This document shows positions 3,492-51,838 of a stretch of DNA of 64,000 nt, one piece after another. The first letter of the stretch is position 1, and the number at the start of each line of letters is the position of its first letter. The position numbers were made by a program, and so were the translations under genes. Origin of the DNA: a virus; the IMG/VR virus record IMGVR_UViG_3300021085_000009, positions 72,815-136,814 of that record, one strand, 5' to 3'. The notes under the pieces were generated by a model. It saw only the letters and a program-made list of their open reading frames with translations, had not been told where the DNA came from and ran no database searches.

Positions 3492-3572
3492 TGTTGGCTC
3501 CTATGTTTCAACTCTTATATAAGAGATATTAATTAAAAATAAAATTTCTGCTAATATATATTAGCGTATATC

Positions 3573-3580
3573 TATTTATA
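3573..3580 (-). promoter_or_regulatory. T4-type late promoter TATAAATA
   Basis: Exact gp55 consensus in the intergenic region upstream of the fibre gene. Confidence 0.75.
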
Positions 3581-3606
3581 ATGTTTAGGAAGCCAATTGC
3601 TATGTT

Positions 3607-5220
3607 TTAGTAAGTTCCGCCATCTATTACATCAGAAGCGAATGGAACACCTGAACCATTAAACTGAATCAGATCTCCTTGAGTACCAGTTACTTGCGAT
3701 AAAGCAGTACCTGCACCGTTTGATATAAATACACCGTTACCTGTAAAGCTTGATACTCCAGTACCACCGTGAACAACTGCAAGGTCATTACCAAGTGTTA
3801 CAGTTCCTGATACATCTAGGTTACCATTAAGATCAAGGTCTGCATTTACTTCAACTTCATTAGTAGCTGAATCAAGTACTAACTTACCAGCCGTTGTGGT
3901 AATAGTTTGGTCATCAGCAATACCAACTGTGATATTACCAAGATCAGCACCTGTACCATAAATGTTTCCAAATTCAGCATCACTCCATGGTGCGGAAGCG
4001 TCTTCTCCACCACTTAAATCTTCGTCTTTAGTAAATACAAATCTTTCTGTTTGTATATCAAATCCAAAGAATCCAGTAGCAACTGCAGAACCAGTTCCCC
4101 ATTTAAATCTTACACCACGATCAAGACCATCTGATGTATTTGAAGAAGTGTTATCTGCTAATGCGATTACTGGGTCGTCTAATGTTACAGTTGTTGATTC
4201 AACTGTGGTTGTTGTACCTTGTACTGTAAGGTTACCCGAAATAACTACGTTATCTGTAAGACCATTACCAAGATTAATAGAAGAGCCATTGACATTTAAG
4301 TTGCCATCAATAACTGTATTACCAGTAGCACCTGCGACTGTTAATTTGTTTGAACCTACTACTAAATCTGTTGTTACTGTTAAATCGTTTCCTACAGTAA
4401 CATCATTAGGTAATCCAACTACGACTTTTACATCTGTACCTACTTTAGTTACAGCAGTTTCAATTTCATTAGTTGTTCCAAGTATCTGTAAATCATCTGT
4501 TAGAATATCTACATCTTGTGCACCAGTATCACCGTCAACTGTTAATGCTGTTGCAACAGCAACTTGGTTAGCAGCTATTAAACGACCTTGTTGGTCAACT
4601 GTAAAGGTTGGAATTTGTGTAGCTGAACCATAAGACCCTGGAGTTACTGCAGTATCATCTAGGTCAATTTCAATTGTATTACCTGAACCGGTTGTTGTAA
4701 TACCAGTATCACCTGAAATAGTAAGTGTTTCTGAATCAAGGTCAATAGATAATGCACCACCATTATCACCTTGGAAGTCTAAGTCTTGTGCTGTAACAAC
4801 ACTATCAATATATGTCTTAGCGGCTAGTGCTGTAACTAACTGAGAGTTAGTAGCACCTGCTAAAGTTGTTGATGTTGATATGCTTGTTACTACTTGACCT
4901 GAACCTCCAGTTGCTTCAAGAGCAAGAGATCCAATATTTAATTCTGTTACATGTTTATTAACATCTACGATTAACGCTTTATTGGCTGTTGTAGCACCAT
5001 GTACATGATCGAGTAATCCTACAAAATACTTACCGCCAATTAAATCGACACTAGAAGCAACCCCACCAGATTCTGTTCCAGTACCAATATATAATCTATC
5101 ACCATTGTTTGCTTGTGTACCAGCTACATATGAGTATGCTAATTCACCTGTTTTAATATTACTAGGGGCATTGGTGGTTGCACCCGTAGTTAAGATTTTT
5201 ATTCTTGTTAAATTAGCCAC
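3607..5220 (-). CDS. Tail fibre-like virion protein (537 aa)
   Basis: N-terminal TGELAYS motif, G/T/D-rich beta repeats, VTPGSYGSATQIPTFTVDQQGR and GNLTVQGTTTTV fibre motifs, ends IDGGTY. Confidence 0.75.
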   Translation of the reverse strand: MANLTRIKILTTGATTNAPSNIKTGELAYSYVAGTQANNGDRLYIGTGTESGGVASSVDLIGGKYFVGLLDHVHGATTANKALIVDVNKHVTELNIGSLALEATGGSGQVVTSISTSTTLAGATNSQLVTALAAKTYIDSVVTAQDLDFQGDNGGALSIDLDSETLTISGDTGITTTGSGNTIEIDLDDTAVTPGSYGSATQIPTFTVDQQGRLIAANQVAVATALTVDGDTGAQDVDILTDDLQILGTTNEIETAVTKVGTDVKVVVGLPNDVTVGNDLTVTTDLVVGSNKLTVAGATGNTVIDGNLNVNGSSINLGNGLTDNVVISGNLTVQGTTTTVESTTVTLDDPVIALADNTSSNTSDGLDRGVRFKWGTGSAVATGFFGFDIQTERFVFTKDEDLSGGEDASAPWSDAEFGNIYGTGADLGNITVGIADDQTITTTAGKLVLDSATNEVEVNADLDLNGNLDVSGTVTLGNDLAVVHGGTGVSSFTGNGVFISNGAGTALSQVTGTQGDLIQFNGSGVPFASDVIDGGTY

Positions 5221-12528: not shown

Positions 12529-15500
12529 TTATGCCGTCGTTGCTATTGCTCTAAAGTCTCCCAACATTGGAACATTAGAGCTGTTACGTGATCTTAGTAC
12601 TACCTTAATTGCAAATTTTGAGAATGCTCCATCTACTACGCCACCTGCTAAACTATTTGCAACTGTAGGATTAATTTCAAAATGTGCTTCACTCATTCCA
12701 CTATCAGATACTGGAATTGTGTTTACTGGATTAGCTGGTCTCCAATTTAACTGTGTAAAATCTGAATCGTCTGCACCTGATTGTACTTTATAATATAAGT
12801 CAACTGAAGAATCAGCTGGCCTTGCTACTGACATATAAACATCGATTAAATCAGCTTCGTTTTCTAATTCAATTTTCTTAGTTATATATTTAGCTAAGTT
12901 TGTAGTACCAGAAGGTTGTGTCTCAGCTACTAATCTACTATTGGTAGCATAATAAGGTGCAGTAGCGTCATTGATTCTATTTTGAATAGTAAACAATGAA
13001 GTTCTTTCCAAATCAATGGTTGGAGATATTCTATCGTTTCCATTGTTATTTAATGTACATTTAATTTCTGTAAGTGTTGTAGCTCCACCATTTGCATTAG
13101 GTGACATAACCATATATGGTTTTTCTGGAACAAAGTTACTATTAGGTAATATTTCAATTTGAGTTTGAGCAGTATATGATTGTTGTGTTGTACTATCTTG
13201 AGATGCTGCTGAAATACCAGTTAAATCTGTTTGTATTGAAGTTCCAGGAACTTGAGTGTTTTCCATTTTTAATACTAATGTATTATATAACATATTTTCA
13301 GTAGCAGTAACATTATCTCCACCGCCAAATATTCCAACTGTAGTAGCAGTTCCTGCATGTGTTATAACATATGAGTCATGTTCTATCTCTGTAATAGTGT
13401 GAGCTTTATTGATGTGTGCTACATTAGTAATACCATTACCAGCAACATAACCAGCAATTATAACTTGATGAGATCCACTACCATAGTGTCCATGGTTAGA
13501 ATGATAAACTCTAATTTTATTTGTAGCAATATATTCTAATGAATCTGGATTAAGCTTCTTAGGTTCTATTGAGTCATTGACTAATGTAACAAATTGATTA
13601 GCCGTAGTACTAAATTGGCATCTATTAAGTTTAAATTTAAGATCCTTAGTTTGCTCTGCTGTCCATGTTGAAGCATTAGCTGATGTAAAGAATACACCGT
13701 TATATGGTTGTTTATTAACTCTTTTATTTGTAATGGTTAAATCCATTCCGCCAACTTCTGATACATATACTTTATAATCAGCTGAGTTTGCAATTAATAC
13801 AATAGAATACTCAGAGTCTCTTTCCAAATAAACTGGATGTTTAAATCTTATAACAGTTCCTGCTGATGCATCACTTGATATATTAATGTTAGCTGGATAA
13901 ACTGTTACGTCAGAGCCAGGTATAACCTTTTGTGTTGGATAACCATTATCAACAGATCGTATAGAAACTTCCAATGGAATGTTAGCATCTATAGATTCAA
14001 AGAATAATTCTATCTCATTTAAAAATACACCAGCTCCTGTAGAGTCTGGATCAGTAATTGTAAATGTTTGTGCTACTGGATCTGTCCATCTGATTAGTTC
14101 AGTCGATCTTTCAAATGTAGTTCGACTAACTGCTTTACTTGCTGAACTAACTTCCCTAGTAACTAACCTTGGAACCTTAGTAGCAATAATTGTTTTCTGA
14201 TGAACTTCTAGTAATCCTTGTGCATAATAATTTGCTGATGCATAAGTATCAGCTTCTGATGAATCGTTTGTAGGGCTATCTGTTAGTTTAAATTCTCTAG
14301 TACCAGTTTTAAATTTTAGTACATCGTTTCTAGGAATAATAAATGATCCTATGCATCGACCAGCAGCATCAGTTACTAGTGCACCTGAATTAGAATCGGG
14401 ATGTGCACTTTCTCCTGTATGACTTTTAACATTGCTTCTTGTTGAAAATTTAACAAATGATGATTCTTGTCTACAATAGGATGTTACTTTAGTACCATTG
14501 AAGAAAGCATCTAGCTTTGAATTCGGCTTAAGAAGTTCTGCGTTAAAGAATATTTTTCTTGATCTAATAAATGGTATAAAGTTTGTTTCTACTACGTAAT
14601 CGCCAACTTCTTTAAATTGTGTATCTGATGCAACTGAAGTTGTTAGCCCAGATCTTGATTGAGAACCAGTTTCAGTTATAGCTTTTTGAACATCTTGAAC
14701 TTCAGCTCTACGGCCACCGTTTCTACCTGGTGCTACAAAACCCATAGCCTCAGCTTTGTTTCTGCTAACTAATCTTTTATTAGATGTGGTTTCTGTTACT
14801 TCTCTACCAGTCCAGTTAGTTTCCCATTCGTTCCATACTGTTCCTAATATGCCTTCTTGCTTAGCCATAGCAACGAACTGATCATAAACACTAGTATCAT
14901 CTATGATAATATCTGGTCTTACATCTACTTCTTTCCATTCATCCGATGCAGGAGATAGTTCAATCTTTCCTTCCCATACAAAGATATCATATGGATTTAC
15001 AAATTCAGCATAAGTAGAAAATGGTTGATCGATATAATTAGCTGTAGTATATGGTAGTGTAACCATATCACCTGAACCAGCAAGTGTGTTTCCTTTTACT
15101 CCACTTTCGACTGAAGAGTTAACACATGTACCAGTATCATTAGACTTTCTTACAAGGTTAACGCCTCTTTCATCAAATGATGGTCTAGCAATTCCAGCAT
15201 CTTTGTCAACTGAAATTTGATAATCAGGATCATTTGAATTACCAATGTTATGTCCTGTAAAGTTATCTACTATAAATCCGTTTTTAATTCTTGGGTTTCC
15301 ATCGCTATCTAGTAAAGGTGTTCCTTGTGCTGACTTTTCTAATAAAGAAAGCGATGTATAATATTCTAGTGTTTTAATTCGTTTATCTAGCTTGCCAATA
15401 TCTCTCATTGTGTATCGTTTGTTGTCAAATGGTACTGGTTTAATATCTAACTTATTGAATACGTATGGTGATATGTTTAATGTATATAATGGCATTGCAT

Positions 15501-18015
15501 CTTTAACATTTTCAGGAGCTACTGGATTAAGATCTGATACACCAGTTATATACTTATATGCACCTTCCTTAGTTATAAATAATTTATCTTTTCTTGGAAG
15601 GAATATTGTAACATCATTAGTAGCAATATTGTTTGGAGCTATTGGAGAACTAAGTGATGATATTCCTCCAGCAAAATCTCCATCTAAATCTTTAACTGGT
15701 CTGAAGTCTAAACAATCTCTTAAATCTACAACTCCGGTTGAGCTTTTAAAACTTGGAATCTCTTCGTACTTAGCAGCTTCAAGAGCTGAAGGTGTAGGAT
15801 TACCAGGTGTGTAATATGAATCAACTGAGAAATAATCTCCGCCAGTATGTGTATAATGATCTAAGATAATAGTCATATTACCAGGAGCTATTGATTCGCC
15901 ACCTTTTAATATGATTGAAGCCTCGTCATAAAAGTTTGCTCTTTGGCCATTGTCAACAACAAATTTATCTGTTACCAGAGTATTTGCTCCATCTATAATT
16001 GAGGTTACTCTAATTACATCAGCTACTCCTAACTCGTAAGTAGAAGTTCCAGCAGAATATGCAATAGTTTTTGTAACGGTTTGTCGAGATTTAGTTTTAG
16101 GTTGAAAGTTAGTTCTTAACACTGTAACAATAGCTGAAATTTGTATTCCAGAAGTCATTGTTTGGCCAGTTTCTGTAGCAGTTAAAGTAAACTGTGAGTT
16201 ATTAACACCACCAGATGTAGAATCAACTTCACTTATTTCAAATGTTCTTCCTGAATTATGATTAGCAATTGATATTTGAATATCGTCGTCATTTGCTAAA
16301 ACTCCATTAGTAATAGTAAATACCGCTTCTCCAGTACCACCAATAGTAGTATTAACTCTTTGTCTAACTCTATAAGCACCTGTAGTAGAACCACTAGTTT
16401 CTAAAGTTTTTACTGTGTCATAAGGTAACTTAAATACTAATGTGTTATTAGATGTATCAAACAATGTTGCACCAGCAGTAATATTACCACTTGCTCCAGT
16501 TCCTAAGTTTCCTTTAAAGTCAACGCCAGATAATACTTGTCCTACGCTTTTTACAGAAGAAAATATATTAGTGCCAGTCATTTGCAAGTCAAATAAGTAT
16601 AATCTGTAATGGGCTGGATTAACACCGATATATTCAAGTCCTCTAGCTCTTGCTGTACCTATTGGTGTCGATTGATTTACTGCACTATATAAAGTTACAG
16701 TTGCTAAATTATTAATGTCTGGAATACCTGTTGTACTATCAGTAGTTAACTTAATATAATTGCCTAGTGGAGTTGAAGTTGTAGCTCCAGCTGCAGTAGC
16801 TGTATCGCTAATGCTTCTTGGTTTATCAATTACAATAGGATCCGATGCAGTCTTTTCGACTCGGTATCCTTGGACATAAGCCACTGAAGGCTCAACAGTA
16901 ATAGCCATTTTACTAGAATCACCACCGTCAGCAGCTGATAAGTAACCATTGTTTCCAGCTTCATCATTTAAATGTTCGTTAATATCTAGGATGAATGGTC
17001 TTACTGCATAGTTGCCAGACTCTTCGAATGTTCTTGTAGCAAATCGATCCGATAATGTTGTATCAATTGGATCAGTTGATGTTGTTTGTGTTACACCATT
17101 TTTGACGAGGACTAATGGTATAAAGTTAGTAGTTGTTTGTGATGCTACTACAACATTTTCTTTTATTAGTGTAGCAACTATTTTTAGTCTGTCTGCGCCT
17201 GGCGCTGTATGATTAGGTGTTCCTGACGCGTTATCATTAAGTGATTGGTCAGAGCCAGAAGTAACTATTGATTGAACGACACTCAGTCCGATTGAGTATG
17301 AAGGAGTATTAGTATACTTATCTAATATCAAAGTACTTGTTGGAATATGCACAAATGATCCATGTAAGAAATACACGCCTTCTTCTATACTTACACTAGA
17401 ACCAGTTCCAACTGAATCGCCAGTTATTAATGAGTCGCCATTATTAACATCAGCTCCAACATATTCAGTTGCACTTCCTGTACCACCGCCAACTTTACCA
17501 TACCTGGATCCAGTATTAGTAACAAAAACTTCTCCAGTACCAAATGCTTTTACATTTTTATCTGGGCCTCCAGAACTTAAGTATTTAATAAACAGCGTTA
17601 TTGGTTCTCCTGGACTAACGTAAGTGCTTACTGCAATAACCTTTGCTTGAACTTGGTTACCAGTATTACCTGTACCAGTAATTGTTTTACCTACAAAATC
17701 ATTTAGGTTTGTAGAAGTAGTATATGTTGCTGCACTGCCAGTAGCAATTGTAGAATTAAATACATCTTCTACTTTTATAAAATCATAATCGATATTTACT
17801 GTGACCTTACCGCCTATAACTCTTGAGCCATTATTAAAAGCCCATTGACCATACTTATCAATCTGTGCTTGTAGCGCTGTTTGTAACTGAGTAAGTTCTC
17901 TAGCTTGAACTGAATAGCCAGGCTTAAATAAGATTCTATGATAATTTTTTGACTCATCAAAATCATCATGATATGGTTTATCTGGATTGTTATAAAGGCT
18001 TTTACTTATTGTCAT
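12529..18015 (-). CDS. Large baseplate-associated structural protein (DUF4815/VrlC-like, 1828 aa)
   Basis: PYHDDFDESKNYHRILFKPGYSVQARELTQLQ start; KRYTMRDIGKLDKRIKTLEYYTSLSLLE; GFIVDNF; DPVAQTF. Confidence 0.85.
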   Translation of the reverse strand: MTISKSLYNNPDKPYHDDFDESKNYHRILFKPGYSVQARELTQLQTALQAQIDKYGQWAFNNGSRVIGGKVTVNIDYDFIKVEDVFNSTIATGSAATYTTSTNLNDFVGKTITGTGNTGNQVQAKVIAVSTYVSPGEPITLFIKYLSSGGPDKNVKAFGTGEVFVTNTGSRYGKVGGGTGSATEYVGADVNNGDSLITGDSVGTGSSVSIEEGVYFLHGSFVHIPTSTLILDKYTNTPSYSIGLSVVQSIVTSGSDQSLNDNASGTPNHTAPGADRLKIVATLIKENVVVASQTTTNFIPLVLVKNGVTQTTSTDPIDTTLSDRFATRTFEESGNYAVRPFILDINEHLNDEAGNNGYLSAADGGDSSKMAITVEPSVAYVQGYRVEKTASDPIVIDKPRSISDTATAAGATTSTPLGNYIKLTTDSTTGIPDINNLATVTLYSAVNQSTPIGTARARGLEYIGVNPAHYRLYLFDLQMTGTNIFSSVKSVGQVLSGVDFKGNLGTGASGNITAGATLFDTSNNTLVFKLPYDTVKTLETSGSTTGAYRVRQRVNTTIGGTGEAVFTITNGVLANDDDIQISIANHNSGRTFEISEVDSTSGGVNNSQFTLTATETGQTMTSGIQISAIVTVLRTNFQPKTKSRQTVTKTIAYSAGTSTYELGVADVIRVTSIIDGANTLVTDKFVVDNGQRANFYDEASIILKGGESIAPGNMTIILDHYTHTGGDYFSVDSYYTPGNPTPSALEAAKYEEIPSFKSSTGVVDLRDCLDFRPVKDLDGDFAGGISSLSSPIAPNNIATNDVTIFLPRKDKLFITKEGAYKYITGVSDLNPVAPENVKDAMPLYTLNISPYVFNKLDIKPVPFDNKRYTMRDIGKLDKRIKTLEYYTSLSLLEKSAQGTPLLDSDGNPRIKNGFIVDNFTGHNIGNSNDPDYQISVDKDAGIARPSFDERGVNLVRKSNDTGTCVNSSVESGVKGNTLAGSGDMVTLPYTTANYIDQPFSTYAEFVNPYDIFVWEGKIELSPASDEWKEVDVRPDIIIDDTSVYDQFVAMAKQEGILGTVWNEWETNWTGREVTETTSNKRLVSRNKAEAMGFVAPGRNGGRRAEVQDVQKAITETGSQSRSGLTTSVASDTQFKEVGDYVVETNFIPFIRSRKIFFNAELLKPNSKLDAFFNGTKVTSYCRQESSFVKFSTRSNVKSHTGESAHPDSNSGALVTDAAGRCIGSFIIPRNDVLKFKTGTREFKLTDSPTNDSSEADTYASANYYAQGLLEVHQKTIIATKVPRLVTREVSSASKAVSRTTFERSTELIRWTDPVAQTFTITDPDSTGAGVFLNEIELFFESIDANIPLEVSIRSVDNGYPTQKVIPGSDVTVYPANINISSDASAGTVIRFKHPVYLERDSEYSIVLIANSADYKVYVSEVGGMDLTITNKRVNKQPYNGVFFTSANASTWTAEQTKDLKFKLNRCQFSTTANQFVTLVNDSIEPKKLNPDSLEYIATNKIRVYHSNHGHYGSGSHQVIIAGYVAGNGITNVAHINKAHTITEIEHDSYVITHAGTATTVGIFGGGDNVTATENMLYNTLVLKMENTQVPGTSIQTDLTGISAASQDSTTQQSYTAQTQIEILPNSNFVPEKPYMVMSPNANGGATTLTEIKCTLNNNGNDRISPTIDLERTSLFTIQNRINDATAPYYATNSRLVAETQPSGTTNLAKYITKKIELENEADLIDVYMSVARPADSSVDLYYKVQSGADDSDFTQLNWRPANPVNTIPVSDSGMSEAHFEINPTVANSLAGGVVDGAFSKFAIKVVLRSRNSSNVPMLGDFRAIATTA

Positions 18016-28648: not shown

Positions 28649-28656
28649 TATAAATA
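28649..28656 (+). promoter_or_regulatory. T4-type late promoter TATAAATA
   Basis: Exact consensus 5 bp upstream of the gp2 ATG. Confidence 0.75.
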
Positions 28657-38979: not shown

Positions 38980-39393
38980 TTACCAACATGTACCAAATAG
39001 ATACTCTTCTCTGGCATAAGCTTCCTTTTCCCAGGGTTGATTGTGGTACTGATAGTTACGTGGTTTACGACCCTTCCAGGATCCACTGTAGCCGTCGAGT
39101 TCCCCTCGTAAATATTGTTTGGCATGAACCATCTCATGAGCTAGAGTTTGCATCATCTCGGCCGTTGAGTAAGGTTCTCCTTCACAGGTTTTGGCTATGT
39201 TAATAGTTATATATCCTTCCTTACGATCACCCCAGCAATTACCCTGGTTACCATCGTCGAGCTCTTTACTAAACCTAACGATAATCGCTTTAGATCTCAA
39301 TCTGTGTATGTTTAACGACCTAGATAGATTCTCTAAGTAGCCGTATATGTACTTTTTGTTCTTTATTTGACCATTAATCTGTAAATAAATCAT
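38980..39393 (-). CDS. Zincin-type metallopeptidase
   Basis: TLAHEMVHAKQY (HExxH) and Y..QPWE.EAY. Confidence 0.8.
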   Translation of the reverse strand: MIYLQINGQIKNKKYIYGYLENLSRSLNIHRLRSKAIIVRFSKELDDGNQGNCWGDRKEGYITINIAKTCEGEPYSTAEMMQTLAHEMVHAKQYLRGELDGYSGSWKGRKPRNYQYHNQPWEKEAYAREEYLFGTCW

Positions 39394-39495: not shown

Positions 39496-40035
39496 CTAAA
39501 ACGCCGTAGCGAATACGTACATTTCCTTCTCTGTATCGTACACTTCCTTACCATTTGGTAACCACACCTCACGGTTCTCACAGTCGATTCCGACCTCGTA
39601 TCGCCTACTAGCCTTACTTTTGGCGAATAACTGAAGGTCCATAATTTGTGCTAAATCATACCACAATTTACGACCACCCTTACTCTGGCATTCTCCGGCT
39701 TGTAGAGTGATTCCTAACTTCTTGATTATATAGCGATATGCCTGAGCCGCTATCCCTCTACCTGCATAAGATTTATCCAATTTGGTGATATCTACATGCC
39801 AGGCCTTAAATTTGGTCCTTGAGAGATTGATATATAGAACCCTTTTTAGCCGTTGTGGTGACCTTCCATGGGTTACAGTTGGATCAACTACCTCTATTTC
39901 CATAAAACCGTCCATAGAACGGTCTACGTATACGTGGAGACGCCTAAAAGATCCTATTTTTTCCCAATCTTCGTAGGTAGGCCTACTGTCGAAATACCCG
40001 AGCTTTTCGCTCTTTTTCATGTGGATTCGATCCAT
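39496..40035 (-). CDS. GNAT-like acetyltransferase
   Basis: LDKSYAGRGIAAQAY (motif A) and QSKGGRKLW. Confidence 0.6.
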   Translation of the reverse strand: MDRIHMKKSEKLGYFDSRPTYEDWEKIGSFRRLHVYVDRSMDGFMEIEVVDPTVTHGRSPQRLKRVLYINLSRTKFKAWHVDITKLDKSYAGRGIAAQAYRYIIKKLGITLQAGECQSKGGRKLWYDLAQIMDLQLFAKSKASRRYEVGIDCENREVWLPNGKEVYDTEKEMYVFATAF

Positions 40036-40132: not shown

Positions 40133-41971
40133 TTATAACGAGGGGGAATATATGGTTATAAGGTCCTTTTTACCTTTTACGGTAATTTGGCCAATTTTTG
40201 TGCATTTTAGGCTAGAGGGTAACCTGGCGTAGGTATCCCCAGAAATGATGGTTTTATTATCGATATATTCCTTTCTGGCCGCTGTGGCCTCTAATCTCGC
40301 GGCCAGGTTTACGGCGTCTCCAATGACCGAATAATCGAATCTAGACTCACTACCCATATTACCTACAATACAGTCACCCGTATTAATACCAGTTCCGACG
40401 TTAATAGGGGGTAAACCCTGCTCACTATATTTCTTTCTGAGCTCGTCGGTTTTCTTTTCTATATCTATTGCTGCCCTTACTGCCATTTCGGCGTGCCTTT
40501 CACATTCCAAAGGAGCATTCCAAAAGGCCATAATACAATCACCCATATATTTGTCTATGGTTCCGCCATGGCTCAAAATTATTTTGGTCATAGCATCAAG
40601 GAATTCGTTAATTAATACTACTAATCCTTCTGGATCATTCTTATTTTTATAGTGTTCTGATATAGGAGTAAATCCTACAATATCCATAAAGAGGAACGAC
40701 ATCTGTCTTCGCTCTCCACCAAGCTTTAATAGGCCTGGATTTTTCTGTAATAGGTATACTTGTTTAGGATCTAAATATGTCTCAAACTGTTTCTTAATTT
40801 GTTGCCTTAACATATATTGTTTATAAAAGTTATTAAAACTAGCTGATGAAAAGACTGTTATATATAGTAATAGAAAATAACTAATATCAAGGAGAATTCC
40901 CCATTCATTCCAGACGTATGCAACAGAAGCTCCGGTCGAGATCGCAAGCCCAGCGAAGAGCATGGCTGATGAACGAATCGAACGATAATATACAATATAG
41001 ACCAAGAGTCCCGAAGCAATTAGCATTGCCAGGATTTCAATTAAATCCGCCCAGAGAGGACGAGATATCGATATTTCATCCATTATTGACTGGATGGACG
41101 CAGCTTGAATATGATGAGCTGATTGAAGACCAGCAGGAGTTGGAATCTGAGCCGCTAATCCCTTCGCCGTCAGTCCAATTAGAACTGTTCGGCCCTGAAG
41201 ATCAGGCAGCTTGGTCCCGACCTCTATTTCCGTAAAGGTATAATTATGGTTAATCCAGAATGACCCATTAGGATCTGTAGTAATTCTAAATGGCCTAATA
41301 ATTATTTCTTCTATACCCACTTCGTTAACTTTTACCGTATAAGATAATCGTTCATTAGATACTCTAAGAAGTTCTAGTGCAAACGATGGGTATAGTTCCT
41401 TATTAATTTGACTTAATAGAGGTATTCTACGCACTAATCCATCAACTTCTGGCATGCCATTTATTAATCCAGTACCCCATGCACCTTGTTCTATTTCAGT
41501 TATATTTGTAACCAATCCTTTATATCTTATAGCCCAATCTAATGGATCACCTGTACCAAATGTTGCTGAACCTACATAAGGTGCTTTAGTGCTTCTTCCT
41601 CTTTCATCTGCATCTTGAGATAATATAATACCATTATCGTTTACCCAAGAAGCAAACACCTCGTCTCCACCAAATCTATCAGCCTCTGGAAACATTAGTG
41701 TAAATCCAATTAAGCCAGCATTAGCGTTTCTTAGATCAGATATTAATTGTGCATAGGTTTGACGAGGGAATGGGTATTGTCCTAATAGACCTAAGGATTC
41801 TTCTCCTATATTCAGTAGAACTATATCTGATTTCTTTTCTGGAATTGTAGAGATATATTGATCAAAAGTGTTTAATCTTAACTGCTGAACAGGGCTAGGG
41901 TCTATTACTCTTATGGTTATAAGAATAAGCGATAATATTATAGTTGTCCATATCGATGTTAAGTATTTCAT
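40133..41971 (-). CDS. CHASE2-domain class III adenylate cyclase
   Basis: N-terminal TM; CHASE2 motifs (NIGEESL..LGQYPFPR, FPEADR, DGLVRRIPL); 3 TMs; catalytic FMDIVGFT, DKYMGDCIMAFW, GINTG, YSVIGDAVNLAARLE, VKGK. Confidence 0.93.
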   Translation of the reverse strand: MKYLTSIWTTIILSLILITIRVIDPSPVQQLRLNTFDQYISTIPEKKSDIVLLNIGEESLGLLGQYPFPRQTYAQLISDLRNANAGLIGFTLMFPEADRFGGDEVFASWVNDNGIILSQDADERGRSTKAPYVGSATFGTGDPLDWAIRYKGLVTNITEIEQGAWGTGLINGMPEVDGLVRRIPLLSQINKELYPSFALELLRVSNERLSYTVKVNEVGIEEIIIRPFRITTDPNGSFWINHNYTFTEIEVGTKLPDLQGRTVLIGLTAKGLAAQIPTPAGLQSAHHIQAASIQSIMDEISISRPLWADLIEILAMLIASGLLVYIVYYRSIRSSAMLFAGLAISTGASVAYVWNEWGILLDISYFLLLYITVFSSASFNNFYKQYMLRQQIKKQFETYLDPKQVYLLQKNPGLLKLGGERRQMSFLFMDIVGFTPISEHYKNKNDPEGLVVLINEFLDAMTKIILSHGGTIDKYMGDCIMAFWNAPLECERHAEMAVRAAIDIEKKTDELRKKYSEQGLPPINVGTGINTGDCIVGNMGSESRFDYSVIGDAVNLAARLEATAARKEYIDNKTIISGDTYARLPSSLKCTKIGQITVKGKKDLITIYSPSL

Positions 41972-42056
41972 ACGTATATATCTATAAAGTTTCCCTTTAG
42001 TGCTTCAAGAAATCTATACCTTCGATAGTAATTAAACTTTTTAATATTACAGTATG

Positions 42057-42773
42057 TCATTCTTGAGTTACAGATGTAGAGCAACCACCAAAAGTCATAC
42101 AGTCAACACTTAATGTATATGTTTGATTAGTTCCACTCATTTGCTTTAATATTAAATCAGTTCCGTATAAACCATCAAGTGTAATATTTGCGTTATGGGT
42201 AGCACCATTACCCTTTTGACGAATAAACACGTCGTTATTATCATTGTAAATTGTAAGGTCTATATTCTTTGCACCATTACTTTGTTGCTTTATTTTAACC
42301 TCGTTATAATCTCCAGCTAGATGTAAATCAAAGTCGTGGCCATCAAGTGCACCTGTTTGGTTTGTTTGTTGAACTGCTAATTGATTGTTGTCGCCATATA
42401 AGGTAATATCTATTTCGTGTCCACCACTCTCATAGTTATCTACCCACCAAGTTAAATCGGTATCAGAATCAAGTGTAGTCCATGCAGCACCTTGAGCAAG
42501 TTTCATCTGATTACCAGTACCACTTATTTCGTCAAAGGTAATTTTATTAGGAAGTCCACCTGTTGTTGTATTAACCTGCACTAAATACATATCTAAATTA
42601 GATGCTGTAATGTATGAATTAGTGTCTAACATCTCAACGTTATTATTAAACCCATATTGATCAATGCCTAATTGAAAGTTATCTCCAGATTGTTCTAATG
42701 ATATTAGGTTATCATCAGCAAAACAAATTGCTGGAAGTAATAATACGCTTAAAATAAATATAATTTCTTTCAT
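42057..42773 (-). CDS. Curlin-repeat secreted protein (CsgA/CsgB-like)
   Basis: Signal peptide; repeats LEQSGDN, IDQYGFNNNV, ITLYGDNNQLAVQQ, LHLAGDYNEVKIKQ, LTIYNDNNDVFIRQKG; in the csgFG operon. Confidence 0.7.
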   Translation of the reverse strand: MKEIIFILSVLLLPAICFADDNLISLEQSGDNFQLGIDQYGFNNNVEMLDTNSYITASNLDMYLVQVNTTTGGLPNKITFDEISGTGNQMKLAQGAAWTTLDSDTDLTWWVDNYESGGHEIDITLYGDNNQLAVQQTNQTGALDGHDFDLHLAGDYNEVKIKQQSNGAKNIDLTIYNDNNDVFIRQKGNGATHNANITLDGLYGTDLILKQMSGTNQTYTLSVDCMTFGGCSTSVTQE

Positions 42774-43883
42774 TTAATTCACCTGATTTATATAGATGAG
42801 AATGTCGTCACCCTCATTTCCTGTAATTATTCCGTCCCATGTTGGTGTGTATGCATCTATTGTAAAATTACCACCAGCACCAATTTTTAATCTTATAGAA
42901 CCATTTATATTTCTATATAATACTAAAGAACCATCTTGTAAAAATACATTAAACTGTGATTCATCATTAAATCCTCTTGTTGCACCTTTAATATCAAATT
43001 CGCCTAATGTGTCGAAAAGATCAGAACTATCTATAATATCTAATACATCAACTAAAAACTCTACATCTAATTCGTCAATATCTAATTCACTGAATTCGTC
43101 CAATTCATCTTCTTCAAGCTCATCTTTTTCTAATTCAGTAAACTCTAAAAAATCTATATCTAATATGCCTTGATCTTCATTAGCGTCATCGGCCATTTCT
43201 TCTCTTATCCTCTCCTTTACTTCTGGAGGAGGTGATACAATAAACATGTTATCAATTAATGATGGTGTAATACCATTTACTTTAATTGCTTGTGTTGGTG
43301 ATGAATCTAATGTTGCTACCATTGTTGCGGCATAGGCTTCGTTTAATGTAACTACTCCACCTTCATTAGAAACTACTATTTCGCCAGATGGGTCACCGTT
43401 TTCATCTGGTAGTAATATGATTAGGCTTCTACCTAACTCATCTACTGTTGTTGTAAAATCAGTACCCCGTACAGCTATTGAGGCTGTAGGAGTTTTAATA
43501 TCAATATTGGCTTTATTCACTAATCCTAATCTTCCAGATGCGAATCTTGCCGTTCCCATTGTAAACTTCATACTCATCTTTGAGAGTGAAGGATCAGGGT
43601 CATAATATATTTCGTCTATTAGTACTTCAGAATGTTCCTTTAAAGATAGTTGAGCTTTATCTAAAAACTCAATAAGCATTCTTCCGTTACCAGTTTTTGC
43701 TTCATCATTTAATTCAATAGGTATCTGATTAGATACTTTTATCTCTTCATTGTTACGTACAATCTGGCTTACACCAGTCGACTCTACTATATCACCAATG
43801 GAATCTGCTTCAACCCCACTGGCGAATAGTATAAGACTAACTATCGTTAGCTGCGTCTTTCTGATTAATTTGTATGGTAGCAT
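42774..43883 (-). CDS. Secreted FecR-domain protein with acidic linker
   Basis: Signal peptide; I.FLD...LSL.EHSEV.ID; KTPTASIAVRGTDF; D/E-rich tract. Confidence 0.85.
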   Translation of the reverse strand: MLPYKLIRKTQLTIVSLILFASGVEADSIGDIVESTGVSQIVRNNEEIKVSNQIPIELNDEAKTGNGRMLIEFLDKAQLSLKEHSEVLIDEIYYDPDPSLSKMSMKFTMGTARFASGRLGLVNKANIDIKTPTASIAVRGTDFTTTVDELGRSLIILLPDENGDPSGEIVVSNEGGVVTLNEAYAATMVATLDSSPTQAIKVNGITPSLIDNMFIVSPPPEVKERIREEMADDANEDQGILDIDFLEFTELEKDELEEDELDEFSELDIDELDVEFLVDVLDIIDSSDLFDTLGEFDIKGATRGFNDESQFNVFLQDGSLVLYRNINGSIRLKIGAGGNFTIDAYTPTWDGIITGNEGDDILIYINQVN

Positions 43884-44574
43884 TATCTGACGTAATATCT
43901 AAATTAATGATAGCATTAGGAGTTGCACAAGGTGAACCTCCAACACAAGTACCTGAAATTTGATTAATATCAACGTCACCACTATCTCCATTCCACTCTA
44001 CAGTTAATGATTGAGAACCATCGTTTTGTAATGTGTTAAAGTTATTGCTGTCGCCAGTAATATCAAAATTCCAAGTTATATCATCAGATTCAAAATCTAA
44101 ATCAAATACGTTTGAACTACCTAATAGAATTAAATCAGCATCTAGTCTTTCTGCACTTGCTCCAACTTTACCTTGATCTATATCAAATGTATTACTGTCT
44201 CCAGTAATAGCAAAGGCGTAATTAGAAGAATCTGAACTTCCGGTATCTCCAATATTCCAATCAACTTCGTTTGAATCTCCAGTTAATGAAAATGTCAAAG
44301 AAGATGAATCTAAGACTAAAGGTCCGAAGATTAAATTCTGATTACCAATCATATCTAAATCAAAAGTTAAAGATGAACCCACTACGGTCATATCAGACCC
44401 ACTTGATGAAAAATCATCTAGACCAATTTTGTTACCATAACCCACTTGATCTATAAATAATGTTAAAGTATCACCTGTCTGATCTATTCTAATTTCGTTA
44501 TCATCTGTAGCTTGTGCGAAAACAAACGGTGTTGATAACAATCCAAGGATAGTTATACTTAAAAATTTATTCAT
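43837..44574 (-). CDS. Curlin-repeat secreted protein (CsgA/CsgB-like)
   Basis: Start MNKFLS with signal peptide; ~22-28-aa repeats IDQVGYGNKI, LDMIGNQNLI, FSLTGDSNEV, FAITGDSNTF, LILLGSSNVF, FDITGDSNNF. Confidence 0.75.
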   Translation of the reverse strand: MNKFLSITILGLLSTPFVFAQATDDNEIRIDQTGDTLTLFIDQVGYGNKIGLDDFSSSGSDMTVVGSSLTFDLDMIGNQNLIFGPLVLDSSSLTFSLTGDSNEVDWNIGDTGSSDSSNYAFAITGDSNTFDIDQGKVGASAERLDADLILLGSSNVFDLDFESDDITWNFDITGDSNNFNTLQNDGSQSLTVEWNGDSGDVDINQISGTCVGGSPCATPNAIINLDITSDNATIQINQKDAANDS

Positions 44575-45526
44575 TTTCGTTTTCCTCTTTATGTGTATGC
44601 CTTTCGTTTTTCCCATCAACTTGATGAGGATGTCTATGGCCTACGGTTAAATTCCAGAACTTACGGTCGTGACCCTGGTAGATTAATTCCAAAACTGCAG
44701 CTTCGATAGCAGCTCTAACTGCATATGTAACTGACTCATTATTACCCACGCCGTCCTCGTATTCTATAAGTTGTGTTCCTTGTTCAATAAACCTAAACAA
44801 GTCTCCACCACTTCCGTAAGATAATACCGATTTCTTACTTTGGACGTTTAACAAAACTTCACCTGTTAATACTGACACCGCTCTCACAGATACAGTAACA
44901 ACATCTTTACGATACATTTTACTAAAACCTATACCAAGTGTTCGTGCACCACGACCACCTGTTTCAGTGTTAGTATCATAACCAATAATACCCCCTTCTA
45001 TAATCATTCCGGCGAATAGAAGAGGTCCAACTCCTTTGGCAGCCTCAGCCCCTGTGGCTTTAGCTACTTCTTGTCGGGTAGATCTTACAATTTGTCTTTC
45101 CCTTACAAGATTATCAATCCCTTGTCTTTCTACTACTCTAAACCAAGTTCCGCCACCTGCAGTTTTGAGTGCATCTATTAGTAATTCAGTACCACCTTGG
45201 GTAACTGCAGTAGAGAACGATGCTATATTATCTACTGATTTTCTTTGACCTGTTAAATCTTTAAATCCATATACTGCAACAATAGGTTTATCTTTTGCTG
45301 GAGGTAAATTTAATAAATCTACATATGCTGGTAATCTAACTGCAGTTGGTTCATCAACGCAGATATATTTCCTAGCCATGGTTTTTTGTAGACCCATTTG
45401 TAAATGTCTATTAAAACCTTCATCATACTTACCTGCTAAATCATTACAATCTTGGTAGTTATCACTCCATTGAGGCACTGATGCGCATCCACTAAGCATT
45501 AATAATACTATTAGATACTTACCCAC
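44567..45526 (-). CDS. csgG: Curli secretion channel lipoprotein CsgG
   Basis: LSGC lipobox; VAVYGFKDLTGQRK, FSTAVTQG, WFRVVERQGIDNLVRERQIVR, EGGIIGYDTN..TGG.GAR.LGIG, TGEVL, NE.V..AVRAAIE.AV; probable GTG start (ORF track starts at 45544). Confidence 0.95.
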   Translation of the reverse strand: MGKYLIVLLMLSGCASVPQWSDNYQDCNDLAGKYDEGFNRHLQMGLQKTMARKYICVDEPTAVRLPAYVDLLNLPPAKDKPIVAVYGFKDLTGQRKSVDNIASFSTAVTQGGTELLIDALKTAGGGTWFRVVERQGIDNLVRERQIVRSTRQEVAKATGAEAAKGVGPLLFAGMIIEGGIIGYDTNTETGGRGARTLGIGFSKMYRKDVVTVSVRAVSVLTGEVLLNVQSKKSVLSYGSGGDLFRFIEQGTQLIEYEDGVGNNESVTYAVRAAIEAAVLELIYQGHDRKFWNLTVGHRHPHQVDGKNERHTHKEENENE

Positions 45527-46013
45527 CGTCAGAGTCCTGTCCAAAGTTTCCAGTTCCTACTGGTATTTCAATAACTGTAGTAGTTCCATCAGAATCAACT
45601 ATTGTCATTTTAATATATTCGGATCCATCCTCATTTGTTAATACTTCGTATGTTACTACATTACCTTCTAAAGTAAATGAACCAAATCTTACAGAACCAT
45701 CATTACTAAACATAGATTCAACAAGCTGCTTAGACATTTGAGCATATATTCTACTTTCTAAGTTACGAATAAACTTAGCCATAGTACTATTTGCTTCTTC
45801 TCTCTCAGCGGCTTTTCTTGCAGCCTCTAAAGCATCTTGTATTGCCTTTTTTCTTGAATGCTCTTGGTTCTCAATTGTTAAATAATGTGCTCCAGTTCCA
45901 ACTCCGCTAAAAGATGGATTTTTAAATCCAAATTTAATTTCGTCTGCTTCTACAACTAAACTCTGTGTAGAAAATATTGCTGTTAATAGTATAATTTCAA
46001 ATCGTTTTTTCAT
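45519..46013 (-). CDS. csgF: Curli assembly protein CsgF
   Basis: Signal peptide then F.FKNPSFSG; F..NLESRIYAQ.S.QL; C-terminal G.TTVIEIP; adjacent to csgG. Confidence 0.88.
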   Translation of the reverse strand: MKKRFEIILLTAIFSTQSLVVEADEIKFGFKNPSFSGVGTGAHYLTIENQEHSRKKAIQDALEAARKAAEREEANSTMAKFIRNLESRIYAQMSKQLVESMFSNDGSVRFGSFTLEGNVVTYEVLTNEDGSEYIKMTIVDSDGTTTVIEIPVGTGNFGQDSDGG

Positions 46014-46269
46014 TTTCCTTTTCTAACTCCAAGACCTTTTGTCTTTCTTTATATTCAAGTACTACTTTTATCTTTTCTTGTAATCTTATCATATCTTGAT
46101 CAAGCATTCGAACCTGATCAATTAACCGTATTAAACCCATATGCATTTCTTCAAGCTTTGGCTCTAATTCAGAAGACACAAACTGCCATACATAAAATAC
46201 AAAATAACCAAGTCCTACTAATGCCACTGTCTCAAATCCAAATTCGATAATTAATCCAGCTATATCCAT
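45997..46269 (-). CDS. Small single-TM coiled-coil protein
   Basis: GLGYFVFYVWQFV then LIDQVRMLDQDMIRL; similar to the upstream ORF. Confidence 0.7.
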   Translation of the reverse strand: MDIAGLIIEFGFETVALVGLGYFVFYVWQFVSSELEPKLEEMHMGLIRLIDQVRMLDQDMIRLQEKIKVVLEYKERQKVLELEKENEKTI

Positions 46270-46565
46270 TAGTCTCTTCTTGTGTCTATTTTTCCATCCT
46301 CTGCAAAATTTTCAGCTCGGGCCACTCTGTCAATAGGAGGGGTTAACTCTAATGCACTAGATACTAATAAATCAATTTTAATAATTTCATTATTCATAGA
46401 TCTAGCCCTATTTTCTAAAGATTTAGTAAATATTGTTAAGGTACTTATTTGATCTAATACGCCACCAAATATTTGTTTAATTACTATAAATACAAAGACG
46501 CCACATGCTATAGCAGCTGCTATAGGCACGCCCACATCTTTAATTAAAGCAAACAAATCTTCCAT
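46269..46565 (-). CDS. Small single-TM coiled-coil protein, first gene of the curli operon
   Basis: GVPIAAAIACGVFVFIVIKQI then LENRARSMNNEIIKID. Confidence 0.7.
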   Translation of the reverse strand: MEDLFALIKDVGVPIAAAIACGVFVFIVIKQIFGGVLDQISTLTIFTKSLENRARSMNNEIIKIDLLVSSALELTPPIDRVARAENFAEDGKIDTRRD

Positions 46566-46571
46566 ATAATC

Positions 46572-46579
46572 TATTTATA
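46572..46579 (-). promoter_or_regulatory. T4-type late promoter heading the curli/cyclase operon
   Basis: Exact TATAAATA 6 bp upstream of the ATG at 46565. Confidence 0.8.
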
Positions 46580-46590
46580 AGATTAATTGT

Positions 46591-46908
46591 TTAGAACGAT
46601 ATTGATTGTCCACAGCCGCAGGACGCGACTTCATTTGGATTTAAGAATTTGAATTCTGAATTTAGACCCTTGGTTTGGTAATCAAGGGTCATATTCATAA
46701 AATTGTGTAAATGGCCTGTTTCAATAACCAAGACATAATCGCCATAATCGATTATGTGATCGTCTGCATTACTGTCAGTAACAAATACAAACTCGTATTT
46801 CCAACCGTTGCAACCAGCAGGAAGAAGCCCAATTCTGATAATATTTTCACCAGCCTTACGTGTCTTTTCGACGAGTTTTTCATGTGCTTTCTCGGTTATA
46901 TCTATCAT
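46591..46908 (-). CDS. iscA: A-type Fe-S cluster carrier (IscA/HesB family)
   Basis: I.ITE.A; GCNG.KY; F.F.NPN....CGCG.S. Confidence 0.9.
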   Translation of the reverse strand: MIDITEKAHEKLVEKTRKAGENIIRIGLLPAGCNGWKYEFVFVTDSNADDHIIDYGDYVLVIETGHLHNFMNMTLDYQTKGLNSEFKFLNPNEVASCGCGQSISF

Positions 46909-47181: not shown

Positions 47182-47373
47182 TTATGAACTGATTAAATTA
47201 AGTTCATTTATTGATTTATGCCAGTCTGAGTATCTAAAAAGACCTTGCTTTTCATGACACCAATACCAACCTTTACTTTCTTGTTCCTCTTGTGGAATAC
47301 TAGATTCGACCTTTAAAGGGCCTCCAGTCTTCCCATAAGTCTTTCTGCTCTGTTCGTTACTTGCTTGTACCAT
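47182..47373 (-). CDS. Possible small hypothetical protein (start uncertain)
   Basis: Fills the gap with GWYWCHEKQGLFRYSDW; overlaps the lysozyme end. Confidence 0.35.
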   Translation of the reverse strand: MVQASNEQSRKTYGKTGGPLKVESSIPQEEQESKGWYWCHEKQGLFRYSDWHKSINELNLISS

Positions 47374-47783
47374 CTTGAATCTCTCCCTTCAACAGCCGCT
47401 ACCGGCCAATCACCACATTGCAGCGCTGCGTTGTGTTTTTTAAATTTACTTAAGCGCGTAAGTCCCATGTTGAACATCATGTTCGCAATGACTTGTTTCA
47501 CTTCTTGTGGATATCCATCCCACCCGTCGTGTAATTTTTTACAATCCTCGATTACTGTTTCTACATCCTTGGCAAAACATTCAATGACTCTATCCTCTGC
47601 CACTGCAGTACCGACCTCCAACCCATGTTCTGGGTCTCCTTCAAGTACCAAGTGTCCAATGCCAAATGTAGCATAACCGAGGTGATCATGATAAATTTCA
47701 TTTACTTGTCCCTCGTCTATAATTAATTGTTCTCTTAACTGATCTACATCAATCACCGTTTTTTCTTCTTTATTCCAAAACAT
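47313..47783 (-). CDS. Phage lysozyme / endolysin (GH24, T4 e-like)
   Basis: L..DEG....IY.DHLGY.TFGIGHL; NMMFNMG...L.KF; DSRWYKQV.NRA.RL. Confidence 0.92.
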   Translation of the reverse strand: MFWNKEEKTVIDVDQLREQLIIDEGQVNEIYHDHLGYATFGIGHLVLEGDPEHGLEVGTAVAEDRVIECFAKDVETVIEDCKKLHDGWDGYPQEVKQVIANMMFNMGLTRLSKFKKHNAALQCGDWPVAAVEGRDSRWYKQVTNRAERLMGRLEAL

Positions 47784-51830: not shown

Positions 51831-51838
51831 TATTTATA
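51831..51838 (-). promoter_or_regulatory. T4-type late promoter for the RimK fusion
   Basis: TATAAATA 5 bp upstream of the ATG. Confidence 0.75.

Follow-up and report, generated by a model that had tools for sequence, protein, structure and literature searches.

We study an eight-gene operon in a stretch of 64,000 nucleotides (nt) of viral DNA, hereafter the window, which comprises positions 72,815 to 136,814 of the IMG/VR virus record IMGVR_UViG_3300021085_000009 and forms the final 64 kb of that 136.8-kb record, 76% complete by CheckV. All eight genes lie on the minus strand, from position 46565 to position 40133, and they encode, in this order, two small membrane proteins (TM1 and TM2), CsgF, CsgG, a first curlin-like protein, a FecR-domain protein, a second curlin-like protein and a receptor adenylate cyclase with a CHASE2 sensor. 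The window also encodes T4-type baseplate, tail-fibre, tail-tube and tape-measure proteins, as well as a gp32-type single-strand DNA binding protein, a ribonucleotide reductase and PhoH. Within the annotated collection a single phage, Pelagibacter phage HTVC008M, resembles the region at the nucleotide level, with 69% identity along 518 nt of the cyclase gene. The phage is a T4-like myophage and a relative of HTVC008M. The gene cluster itself is already known, having been published in 2022 (PMC9599517), and its discovery here is a rediscovery; our concern is with how the FecR-domain protein and the cyclase are to be read. The features of the operon are the following, with lengths in amino acids (aa) and with the E-values of the profile matches.

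46572..46579, minus strand: T4-type late promoter box TATAAATA, 6 nt upstream of the first ATG
46269..46565, minus strand: TM1, small membrane protein of 98 aa, with an N-terminal membrane helix and then a helical tail (phrog_18771, 3.4e-22)
45997..46269, minus strand: TM2, small membrane protein of 90 aa and paralog of TM1 (phrog_18771, 5.6e-23)
45519..46013, minus strand: CsgF homolog of 164 aa with a signal peptide (PF10614, 9.4e-15)
44567..45544, minus strand: CsgG homolog of 325 aa, outer-membrane lipoprotein channel with lipobox LSGC (PF03783, 3.8e-52)
43837..44574, minus strand: curlin-like subunit 1, 245 aa from its ATG (the frame opens at TTG 44619), acidic, with a signal peptide and two C-terminal cysteines
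42774..43883, minus strand: FecR-domain protein of 369 aa with a signal peptide (PF04773, 3.8e-8, residues 62-150)
42057..42773, minus strand: curlin-like subunit 2, 238 aa, with a signal peptide and a C-terminal CxxxxxC (Curlin_rpt, 21.8 bits)
41972..42056, minus strand: 85-nt spacer ahead of the cyclase gene, containing TATAGATA, a late box with one mismatch
40133..41971, minus strand: CHASE2 receptor adenylate cyclase of 612 aa (CHASE2, 4.3e-38; Guanylate_cyc, 1.8e-21)

Adjacent genes abut or share 1 to 47 nt, the sole exception being the gap ahead of the cyclase gene, and the FecR gene lies between both curlin genes, overlapping that of curlin 1 by 47 nt and abutting that of curlin 2. An initial annotation of the window, made from its letters without database searches, had described eight co-oriented, mostly overlapping genes behind a late box, and we confirm the coordinates, the strand and the box. 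The identities that it gave to csgF, csgG, the two curlin-like genes, the FecR gene and the CHASE2 cyclase gene agree with our profile searches, in which curlin 1 falls below the cut-off. The four exported proteins of the operon all carry a signal peptide.

Among the curli parts, the CsgF homolog scores 55.4 bits against PF10614 (cut-off 25.8 bits) and the CsgG homolog 177 bits against PF03783 (cut-off 20.8 bits). Residues 69-300 of CsgG match the structures of E. coli CsgG at 2.4e-44, and the lipobox is read off its sequence; a direct sequence search of solved structures with CsgF returned no CsgF match and nothing meaningful. Measured against the 20.7-bit cut-off of Curlin_rpt, curlin 1 scores 18.3-18.4 bits, which is below it, and curlin 2 lies above it. 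At E <= 0.01 the same profile is matched by 13 of 14 members of the curlin 1 family and by 7 of 13 members of the curlin 2 family, the best at 2.8e-9. The two curlins are paralogous (hhalign probability 98.5%, E 3.2e-15), and the mature proteins, of about 215-225 residues, have net charges of -34 and -20 and a conserved C-terminal cysteine pair.

An AlphaFold2 model of curlin 1 is all-beta, with a predicted local distance difference test score (pLDDT) of 66.6. When this model is compared with the PDB by Foldseek, nothing is found at E <= 0.001 and the weak rows are beta-helices, and an exhaustive VIA-align search returns beta-solenoids, with SufD-type helices at the top (Z 16.7, root-mean-square deviation (rmsd) 2.8, 200 residues aligned). 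Pontibacter CsgA (8c50_A) ranks fifth of 48,161 chains in that search (Z 15.3, rmsd 9.2, 190 residues aligned), and its 17% identity to curlin 1 is the highest among the ten best rows. The model is thus consistent with a curlin fold and, given the high rmsd, no proof of one. We predict that both curlins are secreted curlin-repeat fibre subunits of the CsgA/CsgB type.

Compared with bacterial curli, the phage shares CsgG, CsgF and two putative curlin-repeat subunits, one of which has a beta-solenoid model, whereas its curlins differ in their length, their strong acidity and their C-terminal cysteine pair. The initial annotation could not see csgE or csgC in the window; nor does either have a match anywhere in the whole record, and csgD, likewise not visible to it, was not searched directly. 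Alphaproteobacterial curli systems are likewise described as being without csgE, csgC and csgD (PMC9599517).

The FecR-domain protein consists of a signal peptide, a conserved N-terminal part (about residues 28-215) that holds the FecR domain, an acidic linker (216-299) and a small C-terminal beta domain (300-369). The protein matches phrog_37870 at 4.9e-68, and PF04773 is its sole Pfam family at E <= 0.01. In 14 of 14 homologs the linker is 84-97 residues long and carries a net charge of -19 to -30. A sequence search of solved structures with the FecR alignment found nothing meaningful, and a complex prediction that combined CHASE2 (residues 24-312, 13 rows) with FecR (residues 28-220, 14 rows) gave no answer, scoring 0.00 twice without controls, and speaks neither for nor against contact. 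As a candidate curlin repeat the C-terminal domain was rejected, since its hhalign probability is 0.3% with either curlin family; nor do the N-terminal part and the linker show any relation to the curlins, all values being <= 0.5%.

The hydrophobic stretches of the cyclase, read off its sequence, predict a membrane helix, a periplasmic CHASE2 domain, three further membrane helices and a class III cyclase domain, with CHASE2 matched at residues 16-322 and Guanylate_cyc at residues 423-606. Its best solved relative is the cyclase domain of P. aeruginosa CyaB (3r5g, 5.9e-36), and the top 26 PDB rows are all adenylate cyclases. Across 13 homologs residues D430, K474, D478 and R559 are invariant and N555 is nearly so, and all of them align with 3r5g. 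We take D430 and D478 to be the metal-binding aspartate pair, K474 the substrate lysine, and N555 and R559 the transition-state residues; Lys474 together with Ser548 is presumably the pair that specifies ATP. The catalytic residues appear intact, and the enzyme is predicted to be active.

TM1 and TM2 each have one hydrophobic helix and are paralogs, for both match phrog_18771 and they align end to end at 18-23% identity. Profile searches find no Pfam or NCBIfam match for either, and a PDB profile search with them gives only coiled-coil noise (E >= 0.19). The nearest Atlas clusters of TM1 are all viral, and one of these is auto-named "MotA/TolQ/ExbB" with no common Pfam family, a lead only. The small genes have been labelled "histidine kinase" (PMC9599517). 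Proteins of 90-98 aa with no kinase domain do not bear this label out: TM1 contains no histidine at all, no histidine is invariant across 18 homologs, and there is no HATPase_c match in the phage record. As far as the sequences tell, the label is unsupported.

The FecR-domain protein and the cyclase take on a different aspect when bacterial genomes are considered. We surveyed 301 alphaproteobacterial genomes with the phage FecR profile, CHASE2 and CsgF. The FecR profile matches 89 of the 301, over its first ~200 residues only; CHASE2 is found in 132, and CsgF above the cut-off in five. At least 38 of the 150 CHASE2 matches listed have a FecR-profile match within 3 kb, a lower bound given that 140 more CHASE2 and 42 more FecR matches exist beyond those listed, and by a rough estimate fewer than one such pair would be expected by chance. 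The open frames of the FecR matches reach 5803 aa among the matches listed.

We looked more closely at twelve of these 38 pairs. All twelve partners have a Pfam FecR domain near the N-terminus; nine of them add RTX, cadherin-like, bacterial Ig, Calx-beta, VWA or similar repeats, and the other three (~910-935 aa) are without another clear domain. Eleven of the twelve neighbouring cyclases combine CHASE2 with Guanylate_cyc, the same architecture as that of the phage enzyme, and for the twelfth the longest frame has no match and is probably the wrong frame. At the five alphaproteobacterial csgFG loci, by contrast, tblastn within ~10 kb finds none of the FecR, cyclase, curlin and small genes of the phage (0 of 5). 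FecR with a CHASE2 cyclase is a bacterial gene pair that is found apart from curli, and its two genes are what the phage adds to a curli locus. Judged by these comparisons, the phage operon joins two modules that are separate in bacteria: a minimal curli system of the alphaproteobacterial type, and a FecR/CHASE2 cyclase pair. Because the pairing occurs apart from curli in bacteria, we read the phage FecR-domain protein as the periplasmic partner of the cyclase, which it looks to be, rather than as an iron regulator. The survey further suggests a general rule, whereby CHASE2 cyclases would be wired to secreted or surface proteins via FecR domains.

Published cases are of the same kind, in that a FecR-domain protein again stands beside a CHASE2 class III cyclase. 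In Campylobacterota, the genes clustered with those of CHASE2 cyclases encode an outer-membrane protein with a FecR domain, a phosphodiesterase and a TPR protein (PMC9239204); neither a phosphodiesterase nor a TPR partner is found in the phage cluster. The S. meliloti cyclase CyaD1 is SMc02176; the next locus tag, SMc02177, belongs to a FecR-domain protein, whose gene adjoins smc02178, and smc02178 is placed near cyaD1 and clr (PMC5498481). Also in this group is the NsrA-CyaK system, where perception of a plant signal by CyaK requires the outer-membrane protein NsrA (PMC13001267, PMC7529298). The phage arrangement differs from these bacterial pairs in that one curlin gene separates the partners.

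Comparison across related phages also lends support to the partnership of the FecR-domain protein and the CHASE2 sensor. Over the related viral loci described below, identity to the window for FecR and for the cyclase is correlated with rho 0.86, or 0.83 after near-identical loci are merged into 34 patterns, and for curlin 1 and FecR rho is 0.85-0.88. Curlin 2, though located between FecR and the cyclase, correlates with both at just 0.40-0.69. We also compared 12 loci domain by domain. Their CHASE2 domains fall into two classes, with 63-98% or 30-36% identity to the window, and their FecR C-terminal domains do so as well, with 66-89% or 32-47%, the class always being the same as that of CHASE2. 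The catalytic domain of the cyclase does not strictly track these classes. For example, in locus L061 its identity to the window is 77%, against 36% for CHASE2 and 40% for the FecR C-terminal domain.

These loci come from a scan of IMG/VR with CsgG, which gave 236 relatives, and of these we kept the best 80 loci (63-92% identity); they are the closest relatives of one myophage CsgG, and hence not an unbiased sample. The initial annotation had held that the FecR and cyclase genes belong together with csgFG, and in the synteny survey all 43 loci that extend 5.5 kb or more beyond csgG have both. Of these 43, 42 have the second curlin, L060 being the one without it, and the gene order is kept in 42 of the 43. 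FecR is found in all 59 loci that extend 2.1 kb or more downstream, CsgF in 74 of 74 with upstream flank, and TM1 and TM2 together in 73 of those 74.

A scan of genome contigs with the FecR alignment, made in search of a bacterial ancestor of the whole cluster, gave 12 further loci. In nine the flank is long enough, and all nine show the cluster in its phage form, TM1 and TM2 included. The other three are fragments: L091 has only FecR and the cyclase, at a contig start; L092 lies at a contig end, in the 60.8-kb record that also contains L090; and L093 amounts to 81 nt of FecR. The labels of the metagenome-assembled genomes (MAGs) that hold L082-L092 are Synechococcus, Sphingobacteriales, Planctomycetaceae, Rhodobacterales, Saprospirales, Maricaulis, Parvibaculum and Neomarinimicrobiota. 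In the two most distant loci, from the Maricaulis and Parvibaculum MAGs, the cluster adjoins phage tail-fibre, scaffold, head and endolysin genes. On the evidence of these two loci of the 12, whose flanks were examined for phage genes, the MAG copies are likely to be phage contigs binned into bacterial MAGs. Among the genome contigs scanned we saw no bona fide bacterial copy of the whole cluster, and we found the joined form only on phage-type contigs.

The late promoter box deserves separate treatment. In the window TATAAATA is not enriched: it occurs 20 times where 13.1 +/- 3.6 copies are expected, and 6 of 100 shuffles yield at least as many. Its position, however, is conserved. Of 73 related loci, 51 have an exact TATAAATA at most 60 nt ahead of the first small gene, mostly 5-6 nt from its start; the distance is 5 to 7 nt in 35 of the 51. 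Ahead of the cyclase it is found in 0 of 50 loci, in line with the single late promoter that the initial annotation had proposed. The counts ahead of the remaining genes are 0/74 for TM2, 0/75 for CsgF, 0/79 for CsgG, 0/79 for curlin 1, 0/69 for FecR and 3/65 for curlin 2, and the spacer between curlin 2 and the cyclase is only 0-9 nt long in 23 of 50 loci. We predict that the cluster is expressed as a single late unit. Three boxes in the window, at 28649-28656 (+), 51831-51838 (-) and 46572-46579 (-), each end 5-6 nt before the start codon of an open reading frame; if these three are true late promoters, their transcripts would be nearly leaderless.

Sequences from RNA libraries bear on the same question. 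Contigs from two studies contain 57% and 49% of the words sampled from the region. Among contigs at 99-100% identity, one piece of 1659 nt spans TM2-CsgF-CsgG, which is evidence of presence but does not establish a single transcript; others span the junctions of curlin 1 with CsgG and of FecR with curlin 1, and short pieces lie within the cyclase gene. The cyclase has a lower contig depth than csgG and curlin 1, but such depths cannot rank genes, nor do uncovered bins count as evidence. In one contig from a related strain (run X9), 98 nt are absent (window 41986-42085) across the spacer between curlin 2 and the cyclase, which agrees with the variability of the spacer length across loci. Metatranscriptome evidence has been reported for all genes of the cluster (PMC9599517).

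How much of this was known before? The initial annotation recognized that the csgFG pore had been reported in related phages, which is correct, and understated the rest, for a paper of 2022 already gives the complete set, with FecR and the cyclase (PMC9599517). The pore was first noted in PMC7029224 and PMC9004378, both of which treat it alone and call the fibre genes missing; the words cyclase, FecR and CHASE2 are absent from the accessible portions of these two papers. PMC9004378 suggests a gated secretin or pinholin with a role in lysis timing, and PMC7029224 suggests uptake or sibling capture. The same gene order is present at 6.9-13.8 kb in HTVC008M, published in 2013, where the products are given as hypothetical proteins, CsgF, CsgG, "CsgB", two hypothetical proteins and an adenylate/guanylyl cyclase. 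PMC9599517 (mSystems 2022) then describes "HK"-CsgF-CsgG-CsgA/B-FecR-CsgA/B-AC in podo- and myo-pelagiphages, finds the second curlin and the cyclase to be rarer in the podophages, and reports an alphaproteobacterial affinity, block transfer between phage families, and presence at 65 of 65 GOV2.0 stations, along with the metatranscriptome matches. According to that paper and the two before it, the presumed hosts are without curli (PMC7029224, PMC9004378, PMC9599517). Between the window and this pelagiphage type VIII secretion system (curli) region, as seen in HTVC023P-type podophages and HTVC008M-type myophages, there is no essential difference in the published descriptions: the genes and their order are the same, with one or two small genes first, and the window is one more copy of a marine and widespread type. 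The difference lies in the reading. PMC9599517 takes FecR as an iron regulator, and CHASE2 has 0 occurrences in its accessible text, whereas in our reading the small genes are not kinases, the cyclase has a CHASE2 sensor, and FecR would be the partner of CHASE2.

Taken as a whole, we think it probable that the operon is a pelagiphage module of curli, FecR and adenylate cyclase, expressed as one late unit, in which FecR is the partner of CHASE2 and cyclic AMP (cAMP) reports the state of the envelope. Late in infection, the CsgG-CsgF pore would be placed in the outer membrane of the host and the curlins exported. The secreted FecR-domain protein would pair in the periplasm with the CHASE2 sensor of the inner-membrane cyclase, and cytoplasmic cAMP would then report the envelope or surface state. 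We propose the partnership of FecR and CHASE2 because bacterial FecR domains head surface or outer-membrane proteins beside CHASE2 cyclases, NsrA-CyaK being the studied case. Binding of FecR to CHASE2, and its coupling to the pore or the fibre, we infer from the sequences, and signal flow from the pore or fibre to FecR is a speculation based on gene order and co-inheritance only. The relay from curli to cAMP that the initial annotation had suggested therefore divides in two: its FecR-CHASE2 half has gained backing from the bacterial pairing, the shared architecture and the co-variation, while its curli-FecR half stands where gene order and co-inheritance leave it.

Several observations weigh against this account. 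The phage FecR-domain protein, at 369 aa, has no barrel or adhesin repeats such as the bacterial partners have, and its acidic linker and C-terminal domain are its own, not found in the bacteria searched, whose relatives match the first ~200 residues only. The twelve bacterial pairs that we examined were hand-picked, with partner frames of ~900-2100 aa, and are not a random sample. In S. meliloti, SMc02177 was reported to be dispensable for perception of the plant signal (PMC5498481). The full-length FecR protein, modelled by AlphaFold2 from 14 sequences, reaches a mean pLDDT of only 43.5, too poor for a fold search. The co-variation was measured on related loci against one reference, uncorrected for phylogeny and with class limits set after the data had been viewed, and exchange of a curlin 2 cassette alone could yield the pattern. 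As to the single late unit, TATAGATA in the 85-nt spacer could give the cyclase its own start, and the RNA-library contigs are no proof of a single transcript, since carry-over of DNA is possible. Finally, the phage record (76% complete) contains no cyclic-nucleotide-binding (cNMP) domain or Crp-type receptor, so that cAMP has no candidate target there.

A competing view is that the operon carries two unrelated modules as cargo, namely a CsgGF pore that, with or without fibres, serves lysis timing, sibling capture or superinfection defence, and a FecR/CHASE2 cyclase that separately manipulates the cAMP of the host, with no signal flowing between them. Roles for the pore alone have been proposed (PMC9004378, PMC7029224), the podophages less often have the second curlin and the cyclase (PMC9599517), the cluster lies in a variable region between gp32/structural and nucleotide-metabolism genes, and both modules occur apart in bacteria. 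Yet the FecR gene is nested between the curlin genes, with its 47-nt overlap on one side and direct abutment on the other; the order is kept in 42 of 43 loci, with block transfer between phage families (PMC9599517); a single conserved late box precedes the cluster and none lies inside it; and curlin 1, FecR and the cyclase co-vary. We regard two unrelated modules as unlikely.

The opposite extreme would be a complete phage relay by analogy with NsrA-CyaK, in which the CsgG-CsgF pore and the curlin fibre replace the outer-membrane barrel or giant adhesin to which the FecR domain is fused in bacteria, the acidic FecR linker threads into or docks on the pore, and fibre growth, plugging, or contact with a cell or phage sets the level of cAMP. 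If this were true, the FecR domain or the phage-specific C-terminal domain would sit on the CHASE2 sensor, and cAMP would tune lysis timing or the superinfection response. The surface loops of NsrA are rich in acidic residues, according to a paper that cites the NsrA work, and the phage CsgGF channel has been modelled with a positively charged interior (PMC9004378). The acidic FecR linker recalls both, and we treat this resemblance as a lead only. Such a relay is, in our judgement, quite unlikely as a whole.

A third view is that of PMC9599517, in which FecR acts as an iron or ferric-citrate regulator and, jointly with a histidine kinase and cAMP from the cyclase, controls the expression or activity of the phage curli, perhaps with import of siderophores or cofactors via CsgG. 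The FecR Pfam domain is indeed present, and an IscA-like iron-sulphur gene accompanies the cluster. With FecIRA signalling, however, the phage protein shares only the FecR domain PF04773, which is its only Pfam family, and it has a signal peptide instead of a cytoplasmic anti-sigma part. Profile searches of the phage record find no Sigma70_r2, and thus no extracytoplasmic function sigma factor, no TonB-dependent receptor barrel that could act as a transducer, and no HATPase_c; the supposed kinases are the single-helix proteins TM1 and TM2. Moreover, the operon stands behind a phage late box, so there is no obvious need of cAMP for its own transcription. In bacteria, FecR of this type is found beside CHASE2 cyclases and at 0 of 5 csgFG loci, a survey in which iron-uptake genes were not looked for. 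An iron regulator thus seems to us very unlikely. That FecR is instead a structural accessory, as a substitute for the CsgE gate or a fibre-associated factor, with a cyclase that senses something else via CHASE2, is just as improbable in our view: CsgE and CsgC have no match in the record, and the FecR protein is secreted, very acidic and encoded between fibre genes, but its parts have no profile similarity to the curlins, its bacterial matches adjoin CHASE2 cyclases with none within ~10 kb of the five csgFG loci, and its divergence follows that of the CHASE2 domain.

The surroundings of the operon include several genes that lie outside the eight-gene unit, of which the nearest upstream is the following.

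46591..46908, minus strand: IscA/HesB-like gene, directly upstream of the late box (PF01521, 1.2e-11)

This gene for an IscA/HesB-like iron-sulphur carrier accompanies the cluster, and its position shifts between loci. It lies directly upstream of the late box in the window and in L012, L016, L023, L024, L082 and L087, and between curlin 2 and the cyclase in L021 (8213-8524), L069 (11022-11336) and L085 (9390-9701); these placements were made by tblastn, with a cut-off that probably overlooks divergent copies. Farther upstream, by ~750 nt from the operon, is a T4-type lysozyme gene (PF00959, window 47313-47783, minus strand), and in the podophage-like contig L091 an endolysin gene (3250-3639) lies two genes beyond the cyclase. 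The nearness of lysozyme and endolysin genes to the cluster may fit the published idea of a link to lysis, but it may also be due to chance. Directly downstream of the cyclase gene, at 39496-40035 on the minus strand, is a gene whose 179-aa product matches no family of Pfam, PHROGs or NCBIfam, and at 38980-39393, on the same strand, one for a 137-aa protein with weak matches of the SprT/M91/M76-type zinc-peptidase kind (1.6e-5 to 6.7e-4). In the tail and baseplate region, a gene at 12529-18015 (minus strand) encodes a protein of 1828 aa that matches phrog_358, a family of unknown function, with 1397 bits.

What is new here is independent comparative backing for the half of the scheme that leads from FecR to CHASE2 to cAMP, which is missing from the published account as far as that account was accessible. 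The bacterial rule suggested by the survey, in which FecR domains head RTX, cadherin or Ig-repeat surface proteins beside CHASE2 cyclases, seems to be little discussed in the literature. By regarding FecR and the CHASE2 cyclase as a single, imported sensor pair, we arrive at a hypothesis that is sharper, and more readily tested at the bench, than the published account of an iron regulator and a kinase. Few biological entities in the ocean are as abundant as SAR11 and its phages. In such an infection, the module would give cells a secretion system and a second-messenger enzyme that their host reportedly lacks (PMC7029224, PMC9004378, PMC9599517).

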